The translations under genes were made by a program, and so were the position numbers. This document shows, one piece after another, positions 28,355 to 35,145 of a stretch of DNA of 64,000 bases (positions are counted from its first letter, which is position 1; each line of letters opens with the position of its first letter). The stretch spans positions 95,506 through 159,505 of the forward strand of contig JBQVOK010000008.1 in the NCBI GenBank assembly GCA_052437175.1, written 5' to 3'. The notes beneath the pieces are model-generated. The model was given only the letters and a program-made list of their open reading frames with translations. It was not told the origin of the DNA and did no database searches. Source of the DNA: Flavobacteriales bacterium (lineage in GTDB: Bacteria > Bacteroidota > Bacteroidia > CAIKAF01).

Positions 28355-28792
28355 TCAGTTCATTTTAAACTGGATAGGAACAATATATTTGAGCCTTGTC
28401 GGTTTTCCTTTCTGCGTTGCCGGCTGCATACGGGGAAGTGCTGAAATTACGCGGAGGGCTTCTTCTTCCATACCATAGCCGAGCACGACTTCCGGTTTTT
28501 TGTTCTTTACATCTACAATATACCCTGTACTGTCGATGATGAATTCTACGTAAACGGTACCTTCTTTACCAGCCTGTACCGCCTCTTTCGGATAGGTAAG
28601 ATTCCTGACTATAAATTGTCCCAGGCTGCGGTCAAAACATTCCAGGCGCTTATCATTATTGAATTTTGCATCACATCCGGGGAAAAGAGGAAGCACTTCT
28701 TTTGCCCTCCGGAGGCTTCTTGGCATGTCTTTCTGCGCAGAAACCAATAAAGGGAAACTCAAAAAAAGTATAATGAAAATTTTACGGATCAT
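28355..28792 (-). CDS. Secreted standalone TonB C-terminal-domain protein (paralogue 1 of 4)
   Basis: Signal peptide; the FPGCD...C motif shared by all four paralogues; TonB_C-like [12 protein letters not shown]...ALPRMQPA. Confidence 0.7.
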
Positions 28793-28811
28793 CGTATTAA
28801 ATACGTATGTA

Positions 28812-29261
28812 CTATCCTAATTTAAATGAAAGGGGTATTGCATATTTAACCGCTACCGGCTTTCCTTCATGCACAGCAGGCTGCATACGCGGCAGTTTTT
28901 TCACCACACGCACAGCTTCCTTCACCAGTGAGGGATGAATCTTGTCATCCGGCCTTGTATTCCTTATATCAGTAACATAGCCCTCACGGTCTATAACTAC
29001 TTCCAGGTATACGGTACCCTGTGCTTCCACCTCGCGCGCGTCTGAAGGATAGTATATATTCCTGTTCAATAAAATGCCGAGTTGTACGTCAAAACATTTA
29101 CGCAATTCTTCAGCAGACTCCAGCGACTCACAACCCGGAAAAACAGGCGGTCTGTCTGCTTCTTCAAAAGACATCAGTGAATCGGCCGGTGCCTGCGCGC
29201 GGACTACGTTTAAAGCAACACTAAAAAAAGCCAGCAGGCTCAGGAAAATAAATTTACGCAT
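28812..29261 (-). CDS. Secreted standalone TonB C-terminal-domain protein (paralogue 2)
   Basis: Signal peptide; FPGCESLESAEELRKCF; AQGTVYLEVVIDREGYV...LPRMQPAVHEGKPV. Confidence 0.7.
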   Translation of the reverse strand: MRKFIFLSLLAFFSVALNVVRAQAPADSLMSFEEADRPPVFPGCESLESAEELRKCFDVQLGILLNRNIYYPSDAREVEAQGTVYLEVVIDREGYVTDIRNTRPDDKIHPSLVKEAVRVVKKLPRMQPAVHEGKPVAVKYAIPLSFKLG

Positions 29262-29280
29262 TATTACAGGTATAAAAATT

Positions 29281-29739
29281 CTAATTCAACACAAAACGCA
29301 CCGGTTGCACAAACTGTACATTTACCGGTTCCCCGTTCAGCATAGCGGGTCTGCTCATGGCCGGCAGTTTCTTCAGCACGCGTATGGCCTCGGCCTCCAG
29401 CTCTTTATTATAGGTACGCCCCGTTACACTGCGCACCTCTTTAACTTCGCCTTCGGTGCCGATGGTAAAGCGCACGTATACCACGCCGGAGATGCCCTCT
29501 TCACGGGCCATGGGCGGATATTTTACATTCTGTATGATCACATTCCGCACACCCTCCTGGAAACAGCCCAGGAGCGAAGTCTCGCTGGTTTCCCCGTCAC
29601 AACCGGGAAAAACGGGTACTGTGCTGAAGGATCCTTCGAAACCGGTCCTGATGGCAGGTTCCGGGGCTTCGGGCTGCGCGTAGGAGGCTGCACAGGTCAG
29701 GCCGGAGATCAGCAGGGCGAAGAAGAGTAATTTTTTCAT
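29281..29739 (-). CDS. Secreted standalone TonB C-terminal-domain protein (paralogue 3)
   Basis: Signal peptide; FPGCDGETSETSLLGCF; EGISGVVYVRFTIGTEGEV...LPAMSRPAMLNGEPV. Confidence 0.7.
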   Translation of the reverse strand: MKKLLFFALLISGLTCAASYAQPEAPEPAIRTGFEGSFSTVPVFPGCDGETSETSLLGCFQEGVRNVIIQNVKYPPMAREEGISGVVYVRFTIGTEGEVKEVRSVTGRTYNKELEAEAIRVLKKLPAMSRPAMLNGEPVNVQFVQPVRFVLN

Positions 29740-29762
29740 GGAGACTTATTTCGGTAAAAATA

Positions 29763-30824
29763 TCAATTTTCATTGTCTTTCTCTTCATAGAGCTGAAGCA
29801 TTTTCCGGGCCTTTTTCTCCACGATCTTCCGCAGGCTGCGCGGAGCCAGTACTTTCATGCCATCGGCAAAACCGAGTATTTCCCGTTCCAGTTCATAATT
29901 CAGCTGTACCCGCAGGCTAATAATGATGCCCTCTTCGCTGCGCTGCATCACGCGCTGACTAGCGTGCAGGGGTTTGGTCTCCACATAGGGCGCCTGATCC
30001 CGGTTCACAAAAAGGCTTACGGTATGCAGACGCGCGCCTTCCGATACGGAAACACCCACTACATTACGGTAATATTCCCCGGGATCGATCCCCGGATTGG
30101 GCCGGTATTCCTCGTTTTCTGCCACTTCTGCTTCCAGGATACGGTCCAGCGCCAGGGTAAGCAGTTCTTTCTTTTTACCGCGCAGCCCCACCAGGAACCA
30201 GCGGTTCTTAAATTCCCGCAGCCACCAAGGATGAAAATAAAAAACGGCAGCCTCCCGGGCTTTAAAGGACTGATAACGTATAGAAAGGGCCTTATGCTGC
30301 ACGATGGCGCGGTACAGCATGTCCAGCCGTTCGATGCCCTTCAGGTGCTCATTGCTTTCCAGTATAATAAGCGGACGACTTTTATGTGTTTCCGTATACA
30401 CGTGATCTTCCAGCTTCTGGATCACTTCATTCAGCTGGCTGAAATGCGAAAAGCCACGGAACTGTTTCAGGATATCTACCGCCTCGTTCATGCGCGCCAG
30501 GTCATTGCCTGTAACCGGGATGCGCGTTATGGAATAATCGGGGTCCGAATAGCTGTAGTACTTATTTTCGGTAACGATCAGGGGGGCGTTGTAACCGAGT
30601 TTATCGCTGCGCATCACCTGTATATCGGCCTGTATGGTGCGGCGGCTTACCCCGCTGCGGATGCCTTCGTATTCGTACAGGGCGTCACTCACCCTTTCCA
30701 TCAGGGCGTCGAGCGTCCATTTGCGGTAAGGGTTCCGGAAACATTCGTCCAGAACTTTGTATCGGAGTAGTGCATTTTTAGTGACAGCCATAGACAAGGT
30801 ACGCATTCTATCTGCGCAGTTCAA
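29763..30824 (-). CDS. WYL-domain transcriptional regulator (HTH-WYL-WCX architecture)
   Basis: N-terminal HTH (NALLRYKVLDECFRN...WTLDALMERVS); central WYL core (...VFYFHPWWLREFKNRWFLVGL...); C-terminal WCX-like VLAPRSLRKIV. Confidence 0.7.
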   Translation of the reverse strand: MNCADRMRTLSMAVTKNALLRYKVLDECFRNPYRKWTLDALMERVSDALYEYEGIRSGVSRRTIQADIQVMRSDKLGYNAPLIVTENKYYSYSDPDYSITRIPVTGNDLARMNEAVDILKQFRGFSHFSQLNEVIQKLEDHVYTETHKSRPLIILESNEHLKGIERLDMLYRAIVQHKALSIRYQSFKAREAAVFYFHPWWLREFKNRWFLVGLRGKKKELLTLALDRILEAEVAENEEYRPNPGIDPGEYYRNVVGVSVSEGARLHTVSLFVNRDQAPYVETKPLHASQRVMQRSEEGIIISLRVQLNYELEREILGFADGMKVLAPRSLRKIVEKKARKMLQLYEEKDNEN

Positions 30825-33659: not shown

Positions 33660-33677
33660 AAAGAAGAACGTATATAC

Positions 33678-34559
33678 ATGAAAACCGTATGGATAATGAA
33701 AGGACTCCCGGGAAGCGGGAAGTCGACCCTGGCAAAAAAAATGCTGGATGAAAATCCCGGGAACATCAAACGACTGAATAAAGACGAGCTCCGCGCCATG
33801 CTGGACAACAGTCACCATACCACGGCCAATGAAAAATTCGTGGAACGCCTGCGCGACCTGATGCTGATCGAAACCCTGAAAGAAGGGAAACACGTGATCA
33901 TCGACGACACCAACCTCTCCGACCGTCCCGTAGAACGCATTACACAGCTGGTGCAGAAATACCGTAAAGACAGCGGCGATACCGTGCAGATCGAAATACT
34001 GCCCGTGGAAGTGAACCTGGAAGAAGCCATCGAGCGCGACAAAAAAAGGGAGAAAAAAGTGGGCCGCGATGTAATTGTGCGTATGTACAAACAGCACCTG
34101 CTTAAAGACGAACGCGGACCCCATTATAAGGAACAGGATGCCTCCCTGCCGCCGGCCCTGGTCTGCGACCTGGACGGTACCCTGGCCATACTCTGTGCCC
34201 GTTCACCCTACGAAGCCCTGAAGTGCGAAAGCGACGACCTGAACGCCCCCGTGGCCGAGATACTGCGTACCTACAAGGCCAAAGGCGAGCATATCATACT
34301 GCTTTCGGGCCGTGAGGACAACAGCCGCGAGGCCACCGAACGCTGGCTGAAAAAGCACGATATCCCGTACGATGCCTTATATATGCGCACTACAAAAGAC
34401 CATCGTAAAGATTCGGTGATCAAAAAGGAATTGTACGAAGCCCATATCCTGGGACGCTATTTTGTGCGATTTGTGCTGGACGACCGTAACCAGGTGGTAG
34501 ACCTCTGGAGACTGGAGCTGGGATTGCCCTGCCTGCAGGTGAATTACGGGGATTTTTAA
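33678..34559 (+). CDS. Polynucleotide 5'-kinase/3'-phosphatase, T4 Pnk-type (N-terminal P-loop kinase, C-terminal HAD phosphatase)
   Basis: Walker A GLPGSGKST at the N-terminus; HAD motif I LVCDLDGTLA in the C-terminal half; 293 aa, the same order and size as T4 PseT. Confidence 0.85.
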   Translation: MKTVWIMKGLPGSGKSTLAKKMLDENPGNIKRLNKDELRAMLDNSHHTTANEKFVERLRDLMLIETLKEGKHVIIDDTNLSDRPVERITQLVQKYRKDSGDTVQIEILPVEVNLEEAIERDKKREKKVGRDVIVRMYKQHLLKDERGPHYKEQDASLPPALVCDLDGTLAILCARSPYEALKCESDDLNAPVAEILRTYKAKGEHIILLSGREDNSREATERWLKKHDIPYDALYMRTTKDHRKDSVIKKELYEAHILGRYFVRFVLDDRNQVVDLWRLELGLPCLQVNYGDF

Positions 34560-34583
34560 TATAGCTGTTCGCTGGTAACTCAT

Positions 34584-34632
34584 ACGCTGTAAAGTCCGGA
34601 GTAACGGGTCCGGAGTCCGGGACAGCGTTTTG
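34584..34632 (+). terminator. Possible terminator or structured element after pnk
   Basis: ACGCTGT...ACAGCGT 7-bp stem around an internally paired GTCCGGAGTAACGGGTCCGGAGTCCGGG loop, followed by TTTTG. Confidence 0.3.
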
Positions 34633-34677
34633 AAGGAAAGTGGTGGATCCTCTTACTCAGCTATCCGCTTATAGCTT

Positions 34678-35145
34678 TTACTTTACGGGAGCGGCCGGTG
34701 TAGCGCTTCTCAGTTTAAAGGGCACGGACATGGTATAGGCAAAGTCCACCGCCTTGTTGTTCTGTTTTGCCGGAATCATACCTGGTAACAGGGCTACCGC
34801 ACGCAGGGCTTCTTCCTCGAAACCATAGCCCGGTGCTGCAGAGGCCCGGCTGAGGCGTACCTGCTCTGTTTTGCCGAGTTTATTAACAATGAAGGATACA
34901 TATACTACGCCTTCCTTACCGGCTTTTCGGGCCTGTTCGGGGTAGCGCAGCAGCTTCAGCACAAAAGCTTCGGCTTTTTCGCTGAAACAGGTAATCCGTG
35001 CACTGCCCTACTGCCCCTCACAACCCGGGAACAACGGTATTTCATTCACTACGGTAAACACATAGGGTACGGCTGTTGAATCGGCGGTCTGTGCGGCGGC
35101 ATTCAGGCCAAAAACAGCCAGGAGCAGGGACAGGATCGTTTTCAT
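34678..35145 (-). pseudogene. TonB C-terminal-domain paralogue 4, interrupted by an in-frame TAG (amber) codon
   Basis: Minus-strand reading from the ATG at 35145 gives MKTILSLLLAVFGLNAAAQ...IPLFPGCEGQ*GSARITCFSEKAEAFVLKLLRYPEQARKAGKEGVVYVSF...; the stop is the complement of CTA at 35008-35010; the same FPGC[DE] motif as the three intact paralogues. Confidence 0.65.

Follow-up and report, generated by a model that had tools for sequence, protein, structure and literature searches.

A probable SPFH/Band-7-type RNA-repair cassette with a structured tRNA-like RNA between two diverged TonB_C genes of a Flavobacteriales bacterium

Results

RNA-repair genes lie between genes for small TonB_C proteins

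We analyzed a stretch of 64,000 nucleotides (nt) from a Flavobacteriales bacterium (assembly GCA_052437175.1, contig JBQVOK010000008.1, positions 95,506-159,505 of the forward strand; hereafter the window, to which all coordinates below refer unless a relative is named), in which genes for a predicted RNA-repair system lie between genes for small secreted proteins with a TonB_C domain. Much of what a preliminary description had read from this DNA was borne out. The list of open reading frames (ORFs) contains three intact TonB_C genes on the minus strand at 28355-28792 (T1), 28812-29261 (T2), and 29281-29739 (T3), separated by spacers of exactly 19 nt; a fourth copy at 34678-35145 (T4), also on the minus strand, translates as a frame of 155 codons that is interrupted once, by an in-frame TAG at 35008-35010; and M1, a hydrophobic N-terminus, and an FPGC...CF motif are common to all four copies. 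Pfam identifies the intervening genes as they had been named, i.e. a WYL regulator, an SPFH protein, an RNA ligase (Rnl), and a kinase-phosphatase (Pnk), and the T-loop-like motifs described in the 627-nt gap between the WYL and SPFH genes are genuine. The region that separates the TonB_C genes is, as had been noted, a self-contained RNA-repair module. We consider it highly probable that 29763-34559 represents one complete SPFH/Band-7-type RNA-repair cassette between the long-diverged, unrelated neighbors T3 and T4, and that this cassette consists of a divergently oriented WYL-WCX regulator, a structured RNA of ~440 nt, an SPFH scaffold, a ligase of the T4 Rnl1 family, and a kinase-phosphatase of the T4 Pnkp/Pnkp1 type.

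The SPFH/Band-7 protein (31452-32549, plus strand; 365 amino acids (aa)) is of the slipin family, matches Pfam Band_7 with an E-value of 4.8e-35 and 121.6 bits compared to a cut-off of 23.6, and is the presumed scaffold partner of the RNA. It has 3392 homologs at E<=1e-10 and belongs to a large 'slipin' family in Bacteroidota; the record MGQ3133096.1, 'MAG: slipin family protein [Flavobacteriales bacterium]' (MAG, metagenome-assembled genome), is identical to it. On the same strand and 84 nt downstream follows the gene for an ATP-dependent RNA ligase of the T4 Rnl1 (RnlA) family (32634-33659, plus strand; Pfam RNA_lig_T4_1, E 3.6e-19, 70 bits compared to a cut-off of 28.3), in which the motifs KLDG, EGFVIRF, and KVKFEEY are readable and which matches T4 Rnl1 in the PDB (2c5u/5tt6) with an E-value of 6e-20. 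Because Rnl reaches only 80.8 compared to the NCBIfam equivalog cut-off of 242, it is a member of the family rather than an equivalog of T4 RnlA. Homologs named 'T4 RnlA family RNA ligase' are widespread in Bacteroidota. A recent phage origin of Rnl was considered and rejected: the best phage matches, from Streptomyces phages, are ~41% identical compared to 55-62% for matches in Bacteroidota chromosomes. Pnk (33678-34559, plus strand; Pfam AAA_33, E 1.9e-19, and HAD_PNKP, E 5e-50) is a 5'-kinase/3'-phosphatase of the T4 Pnkp/Pnkp1 type that joins both activities in one chain of about 300 aa with intact motifs (P-loop GLPGSGKST and phosphatase DLDGT), and it aligns over its full length with Pnkp1 (PDB 4xrp, E 1.1e-63) and T4 Pnk (1ltq, E 2.4e-36). 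Neither PADLOC nor NCBIfam assigned SPFH, Rnl, or Pnk to a defense system.

The WYL-WCX regulator is encoded on the minus strand at 29763-30824 (Pfam WYL, E 5.2e-12, and WCX, E 3e-11; PADLOC WYL, E 1e-26); no N-terminal helix-turn-helix family was detected in it with Pfam at E 0.01. A Bacteroidetes-type -7 box, TATATTTG, at 30829-30822 on the minus strand overlaps the TTG listed as the WYL start (30824), and gene callers on sister contigs give a protein of 342-347 aa; therefore, the TTG probably lies too far upstream, and translation would begin at the ATG at 30806 or at that at 30791. A -7 motif of this type also precedes atpD at 35513-35520. The divergent promoter region also contains the palindrome TACGCAG-ATATA-CTGCGTA (30912-30930), read from the sequence, which is a candidate WYL operator and is conserved but for one base at the homologous loci L001 and L005. 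A second CTGCGCAG in this region, at 30811-30818, is likewise a candidate WYL operator, and a comparable palindrome lies upstream in locus L017.

A conserved, covarying RNA accompanies the SPFH gene

From ~30900 onwards, the gap between the WYL and SPFH genes is ~96% identical between the window and L005, which exceeds the amino-acid identity of 91.5-95.9% that the neighboring Rnl, SPFH, and Pnk proteins show in the same comparison, and the minimum-free-energy z-score of the region is -3.25. We delimited here a putative structured non-coding RNA on the plus strand at 30990-31431 (both ends approximate) with a 5' domain, a two-unit tRNA-like core that matches a covariance model at 31069-31255, and a 3' domain that is closed by the helix 31243-31251/31412-31420 and followed by a U-run; its 5' and core parts align across the SPFH family. 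Two known types of RNA were considered and rejected. ARAGORN found no tRNA or tmRNA in the gap and the Rfam tRNA model remained below threshold at 23.8 bits, while YrlA (Rfam RF02553) scored 22.5 bits over model positions 30-81, and 29-35 bits at homologous loci, compared to a gathering score of 69. The sub-threshold YrlA match spans a T arm, a capped hairpin, and a D arm. At the loci of three distant SPFH homologs, a gene-free gap of 650-800 nt before the SPFH gene again contains a weak YrlA-like match.

A metagenome scan with the SPFH alignment yielded 80 loci. Upstream of nearly every SPFH gene with enough upstream sequence, two GTTCGANTC T-loop motifs lie 60-70 nt apart on the same strand as SPFH, at a distance of ~310-670 nt and most often near 450 and 385 nt, and no such pair was found on the opposite strand in the same loci. 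An alignment of 42 non-redundant RNA cores (A5) folds into nine helices in which 37 of the 41 pairs show compensatory changes (RNAalifold). In this alignment, paired cells make up 95.0%, compared to 70.3% in shuffles; the covariation score is 0.704, compared to 0.232 in shuffles with none of 500 as high, and it drops to 0.16 or less when the pairing partners are slid by 1-3 columns. A covariance model (R1, from alignment A6) built without the window clade matches 31069-31255 on the plus strand with 66.4 bits (E 1.8e-15), matches the corresponding sites in all 33 other searched loci that carry SPFH, and had no match on the loci without SPFH (L003, L006, L009, and L011). The tRNA-like motifs had previously been taken for integration remnants; instead, they form the core of a conserved, covarying RNA that accompanies SPFH wherever SPFH occurs. 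Judged from these comparisons of sequence, the motifs are a predicted functional RNA component of the cassette and not a scar.

The core is built from two circularly permuted tRNA-like units, each with a T arm and a capped acceptor-like hairpin followed by a D arm. In the family, unit 1 has a closing helix around these three elements, which is the layout of YrlA, while unit 2 comprises T arm, capped acceptor-like hairpin, D arm, and a complete anticodon arm. In the window, all on the plus strand, unit 1 has its T arm at 31078-31092 and its capped hairpin at 31094-31110, and unit 2 has its T arm at 31139-31155, its capped acceptor-like hairpin at 31156-31168, its D arm at 31171-31185, and its anticodon arm at 31187-31203 (A5 columns 161-177) with the loop UUGUUAA and the anticodon GUU. 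The anticodon loop has 7 nt in 41 of the 42 sequences, a U at position 33 in 37 of 41, and a purine at position 37 in all 41. The 'anticodon' itself varies: UUU is commonest (seven sequences), followed by GUU (five, including the window), CAA (four), UAG (four), GAA (three), and others. With a loop that is variable in this respect but otherwise canonical, the RNA itself may be recognized by anticodon nucleases or repair enzymes. Unit 2 is followed by a 3' hairpin (31208-31224, plus strand), the loop of which pairs with 31231-31235 past an A-rich linker; because this pairing covaries across the family (mean helix length 4.8 base pairs compared to 3.3 in shuffles), an H-type pseudoknot is indicated.

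The cassette and its variants occur in unrelated genomic contexts

In a Runella sp., which belongs to a different class, all five parts are present in the same order and orientation among unrelated neighbors, with 58% identity to the window for WYL, 42% for SPFH, 62% for Rnl, and 70% for Pnk, and a score of 75.5 bits for the RNA. Among the SPFH loci more broadly, the parts are exchanged: RtcB lies directly downstream of SPFH in place of Rnl and Pnk in 19 of 58 loci, and a WYL homolog occupies the same relative place upstream in 19 of 56. We also observed, in 31 of 56 loci (within L014-L097), arrays in which up to 16 tRNA genes of ordinary appearance lie on the same strand 0.5-5 kb upstream of SPFH. 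WYL genes and tRNA arrays are nearly exclusive, with only L074 among the 56 loci having both. These upstream arrays may be the 'b7a-tRNA' of the literature.

The cassette occupies the same site in related lineages

Relatives of the window were gathered through look-ups of exact proteins and through two scans, one of a genome collection and one of metagenomes. The genome-collection scan with intact T4 gave one related genome (L005), and deeper synteny was obtained from homologs of the small CBU_0592 neighbor. An exact look-up of the window SPFH protein gave no record; L098 and L099, which belong to the same species as the window, were reached through members of its cluster. In L098, which is 97.6% identical to and colinear with 26457-37542, and in L099, the order is GT2-(T1/T2 slot)-T3-WYL-RNA-SPFH-Rnl-Pnk-T4-CBU_0592-atpDC, where GT2 is a glycosyltransferase. 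L018, from another species (SPFH 90% and atpD 99% identical), has the gene order of L098 with one gene in the T1/T2 slot. L005 (JACVCJ010000054.1, MAG 'Bacteroidia bacterium') reads WYL-RNA-SPFH-Rnl-Pnk-T4-CBU_0592-atpDC up to the end of the contig inside WYL. L006/L007, from a further species (atpD 98.8%), have the order GT2-T3-Rnl-Pnk-T4-CBU_0592-atpDC without WYL, RNA, SPFH, T1, and T2. In the nearest outgroup, L009 (atpD 92%, GT2 81%), the order is atpDC-355aa-CBU_0592-one TonB_C-Acs-PhoD-GT2 with GT2 inverted, and there are no repair genes. In every related lineage found (L005, L006/L007, L018, L098, and L099) the repair genes adjoin T4, and wherever a contig spans both sides they lie between the T3 and T4 orthologs. 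On this distribution, the common ancestor of these lineages, at least four at species level, probably already had the cassette at this site.

The preliminary description had also proposed that the module was acquired. An acquisition at some past time is plausible because the module is absent from the syntenic site of L009 and the Runella cassette lies in an unrelated context; a recent insertion, however, is not supported.

A single ancient insertion in the ancestor of the clade, between an adjacent proto-T3 and proto-T4, with scars that have since eroded and with T1/T2 added later, is possible although we do not favor it. It agrees with the shared orientation of T3 and T4 and with L009, where one TonB_C gene adjoins CBU_0592 and there is no cassette; moreover, no SPFH homolog of 46-90% identity is among the best matches listed from 5.8 billion proteins, which suggests that there is no vertical series in sister genera. 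However, no genome was found in which T3 and T4 are adjacent, and in the tree of the TonB_C proteins (see below) T3 and T4 are as distant from each other as from the remaining copies. Among the relatives found, no genus-level one lacks the repair genes; the only empty site is that of the more distant L009, which is otherwise rearranged, with Acs and PhoD between TonB_C and the inverted GT2, so that T3 may have arrived with GT2 instead of splitting from T4.

By contrast, it is very unlikely that an RNA-repair island of ~4.8 kb was inserted, as had been suggested, in an ancestral array of four TonB_C genes, that this happened recently, and that the tRNA-like motifs are remnants of a tRNA-gene integration site. 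The four TonB_C genes do share orientation and motif, the outgroup lacks the repair genes at the syntenic site, and the cassette is found in unrelated contexts elsewhere. Nevertheless, none of the relatives examined has a contiguous four-gene array without the insert, and the interrupted arrangement is present in at least four species-level lineages, between which the T4 proteins share no more than 58-75% identity. The two boundaries at 29763 and 34560 have no repeat of at least 9 nt in common, whether direct or inverted (they share one 8-mer compared to 0.44 expected by chance), no integrase or recombinase ORF lies between 27.5 and 35.5 kb, the guanine-plus-cytosine (GC) content of the module does not shift (0.525 compared to 0.522 for the window), and there is no tRNA gene at a module border, with ARAGORN finding only a tRNA-Met at 49003 in the window. 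An ancestral four-gene array is also at odds with a T1/T2 slot that holds zero, one, or two genes and differs even between strains, and the tRNA-like motifs belong to the covarying RNA that travels with SPFH. Because the relatives share the interrupted arrangement, without array and without flanking repeats, a recent insertion is refuted by the very outcome that the preliminary description had set against it.

T3 and T4 are stable orthologs and T1 and T2 occupy a hypervariable slot

The TonB_C domain was detected above the Pfam threshold in all four copies, i.e. in T1 (145 aa, with a signal-like N-terminus and FPGC...C; E 6.9e-16), T2 (149 aa; E 4.3e-17), T3 (152 aa; E 1e-17), and T4 (E 3.4e-15 with the TAG masked). 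Their pairwise identity is only 29-40%; therefore, they are old duplicates rather than a recent array. T3, which forms one border of the cassette, has orthologs with 63-80% identity at the same position in L006 and L018. T4, which adjoins the CBU_0592/YgjV-like gene and is interrupted by a stop here, has intact orthologs in L003, L005, L006, L018, L098, and L099. In a neighbor-joining tree of TonB_C proteins, T3 and T4 form two separate conserved orthologous groups; T1, T2, and the copies that replace them are strongly diverged and dispersed over the tree.

The T1/T2 slot contains two genes in the window (28355-29261), one gene in L001 (4923-5411 of that locus; 162 aa, 52% identical to T1), one each in L099 (2357-2809) and L018 (2250-2753), and none in L006. 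In L098 (slot at 2340-2830), T2 is a mosaic allele with ~70% nucleotide identity over the N-terminal three quarters and near-identical flanks. Thus, the slot is hypervariable in number (0-2) and in sequence although the genome flanks are 95-100% identical, even between strains. This variability suggests cassette exchange or diversifying selection on small secreted TonB_C proteins. At the loci of other SPFH genes, TonB_C genes are not associated with the cassette. We conclude that T3 and T4 are stable orthologs, that T1 and T2 occupy a fast-turnover slot, and that the TonB_C genes are outside the repair system.

All four copies share with the TonB energy transducer the C-terminal TonB_C domain (Pfam PF03544). 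The N-terminal membrane anchor and the proline-rich periplasmic spacer of TonB proper are absent from all four, which have 145-155 aa, a cleavable-looking signal, and no proline-rich segment; therefore, they are not energy-transducing TonB proteins. They resemble the short secreted TonB_C-domain proteins of Bacteroidota with ~150 aa, a signal-like N-terminus, and the FPGC...C motif. On the minus strand, WYL, T3, T2, T1, and the GT2 glycosyltransferase gene form a run with spacers of 19-23 nt (including 29740-29762 and 28332-28354). Because of the common strand and the short spacers, the WYL gene may be co-transcribed with the downstream TonB_C genes.

The TAG in T4 is private to this assembly

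The TAG at 35008-35010 is codon 46 of T4. Where the window reads CAG TAG GGC, three near-identical relatives with an intact T4, which are also the closest, read CAG GAG GGC and thus have GAG (Glu) at this codon: L003 (Logan SRR35255265; 150 aa), L098 (SRR33777100), and L099 (SRR7132427). Compared to the window read-through product, T4 of L098 differs at one other residue (154 of 155 residues identical). In more distant T4 orthologs the position is variable and holds K or E (AAA, GAA). Elsewhere in the window, TAG ends two of the 41 long ORFs, e.g. that at 37392-38876; because it terminates ordinary ORFs, the genome uses the standard code. The TAG is thus a single G-to-T change that is private to this assembly; it represents a nonsense allele of very recent origin or else an error of the consensus.

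We consider a sequencing or consensus error, with T4 intact in the organism, to be rather unlikely. In its favor, the change affects one base compared to three near-identical relatives and T4 is otherwise without signs of decay, the sequence comes from a MAG, and the population is heterogeneous at the locus, with deletion, insertion, and cassette-swap alleles. No observation directly opposes this reading, but a real, very recent nonsense allele would look alike, and the TonB_C copies here turn over quickly. It is extremely improbable that the TAG serves as a programmed site of recoding or read-through (by suppression or an alternative code), as the preliminary description had allowed, and that full-length T4 is made: the frame of T4 is otherwise intact and nearly identical to that of L098, but the three closest relatives have an ordinary GAG at the codon, the position varies among orthologs (E, K, E), and TAG is a normal stop for other long ORFs in the window. 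A recoding signal, for which no dedicated search was made, is not evident either.

Natural alleles lack the WYL-RNA-SPFH half of the cassette

In L003 and in an independent contig from Copenhagen sewage (L004), position 29920 of the window is joined to ~32541, and the junction reads ...CCCGCAGGCTAA directly followed by ATCTTAACCC, with imperfect microhomology. This deletion allele (junction at 4637-4655 in L003 and 482-500 in L004) lacks window 29921-32540 and with it most of WYL, the whole RNA, and SPFH, while Rnl and Pnk are kept. The SPFH stop codon and the final 55 codons of WYL are still present in it, so that the allele is derived from the full form. In the T4 tree, L006 groups with L005 as its sister, and of the two only L005 carries WYL, RNA, and SPFH; therefore, this half was probably lost a second time in L006. 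No WYL remnant was found in L006, so that loss and primary absence are indistinguishable by sequence there, and it is parsimony on the T4 tree that favors loss. According to this reconstruction, the WYL-RNA-SPFH half would have been lost at least twice since the common ancestor, in a recent deletion allele within the window species and in the sister species L006.

Two further structural variants were observed. In L003, a 1.3-kb insert between T4 and pnk (1295-2620) has a GC content of 30% (host 52%) and encodes an orphan protein of 345 aa with a J-domain-like 'IHPDKN' motif, for which there is no recorded Pfam match and none in NCBIfam or PADLOC. The contig of L002 (GCA_052436075.1, JBQVNK010000053.1) matches window 19281-31389 with 100% identity and ends within the RNA region at 31389, consistent with strain heterogeneity or with repeat-like tRNA motifs that disturb assembly.

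Several observations weigh against the reading of one complete cassette. The natural loss of WYL, RNA, and SPFH from alleles that keep Rnl and Pnk suggests that the lost parts are dispensable for, or separable from, ligation. In the window RNA, unit 1 is degenerate, with its D arm replaced by a different hairpin, and the RNA scores 66 bits compared to 80-150 bits for most members of the family. Finally, no plus-strand Bacteroidetes -7 box that could serve as the RNA promoter was found in the gap, and the ends of the RNA are approximate. Because natural alleles lose them and keep Rnl-Pnk, the pattern argues that WYL, RNA, and SPFH would modulate ligation and not be required for it.

Discussion

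RNA-repair systems in which SPFH/Band-7 modules and 'a novel tRNA-like molecule' act as cofactors are reportedly mentioned in the 2016 abstract by Burroughs and Aravind. The window has the features of this kind of cassette: a Band-7 protein, an adjoining ligase on the same strand, a tRNA-like RNA, and an end-healing enzyme to accompany the ATP-dependent ligase. In the passage of Wang et al. (bioRxiv 10.1101/312249) that summarizes Burroughs and Aravind (Nucleic Acids Res 2016), RtcB is described as encoded in some bacteria beside a Band-7 protein and a predicted 'band 7-associated tRNA', and YrlA as occasionally adjoining Band-7; there, these are predictions without experimental validation. 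Like these 'b7a-tRNA' systems, the window cassette pairs a Band-7 protein and an RNA ligase with a tRNA-like RNA, and it shares with them modularity, ligase displacement, and lateral spread. Unlike them, it uses T4 Rnl1 together with a separate Pnkp where they have RtcB, it includes a WYL-WCX regulator, and its RNA is not one tRNA look-alike but a two-unit permuted mimic of ~190 nt within a predicted transcript of ~440 nt, a comparison for which the 'b7a-tRNA' is known to us from the summary by Wang et al. We conclude that the window cassette belongs to a known, predicted kind and is a variant with enzymes of the T4-type Pnkp/Rnl1 and a WYL regulator.

Three other systems resemble parts of the cassette. 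With YrlA and the rsr-yrlBA-rtcBA operon of Salmonella it shares the layout of unit 1, an RNA encoded within an RNA-repair operon, and a weak Rfam similarity (22-35 bits). The differences are that these scores are far below 69, that the window RNA continues with a second unit, which includes a full anticodon arm, and then with a pseudoknotted hairpin, and that the regulator is WYL and not RtcR/CARF with sigma-54; moreover, no Ro60/Rsr (TROVE) protein is among the ten proteins scanned around the locus. With the tRNA repair pathway of phage T4, which acts as counter-defense to the anticodon nuclease PrrC, it shares the same two enzyme families side by side, but the window genes lie on a bacterial chromosome and are linked to SPFH, a tRNA-like RNA, and WYL. 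Pnk is closest to Pnkp1 of the Pnkp1-Rnl-Hen1 complex from Capnocytophaga gingivalis, a member of the same phylum (PDB 4xrp; described in PMC4411300), but the window ligase is of the T4 Rnl1 family and not of the Pnkp-ligase-domain type, and there is no adjacent Hen1. A locus of Flavobacterium sp. LM4 (L100, 6001-10578) contains a T4 Rnl1-family ligase, a Hen1_N protein, a PNKP_ligase-type Rnl, and Pnkp1 together; with a WYL-WCX gene upstream and a weak match to the RNA model (29.8 bits), it links the window cassette to the Pnkp1-Rnl-Hen1 system.

Based on the biochemistry of T4 Pnkp/Rnl1 and the literature on RtcB, we suggest that a ribotoxin or anticodon nuclease would leave 2',3'-cyclic phosphate and 5'-OH ends in tRNA or rRNA, that Pnkp would strip the 3' phosphate and phosphorylate the 5' end, and that Rnl1 would then seal the nick. 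The roles of SPFH, RNA, and WYL are inferred from genomic context: the SPFH protein and the tRNA-like RNA together would act as cofactor, scaffold, or decoy, and the WYL regulator would control the divergent promoters, perhaps via the palindrome at 30912-30930, and thereby couple expression to a nucleic-acid damage signal.

A bolder reading, which we regard as unlikely and put forward only tentatively, is that the RNA represents an undescribed, widespread family, i.e. a two-unit, circularly permuted tRNA mimic with an otherwise canonical, anticodon-variable loop and a pseudoknotted 3' hairpin that is without an Rfam model, may differ from the 'b7a-tRNA' of 2016, and would possibly serve as decoy or sensor for anticodon nucleases in SPFH-ligase cassettes. 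If this were true, the deletion alleles would be ready-made genetic contrasts for the contributions of RNA and SPFH.

For the annotation of this genome, the analysis means that the supposed "remnants" are a predicted functional RNA component, that the "island in array" is an old and stable arrangement, and that the amber codon is a private single-base change. The idea of repair by Band-7 proteins and tRNA-like RNA has been in the literature since 2016; the interest of the present case lies in a well-supported RNA family without an Rfam model and in natural deletion alleles. The locus offers a clear case of the Band-7/tRNA-like-RNA repair systems, which still await validation, here paired with T4-type Pnkp/Rnl1 and not with RtcB, and the existence of alleles from the same species without RNA, SPFH, and regulator could make the role of tRNA mimics in RNA-repair operons testable.

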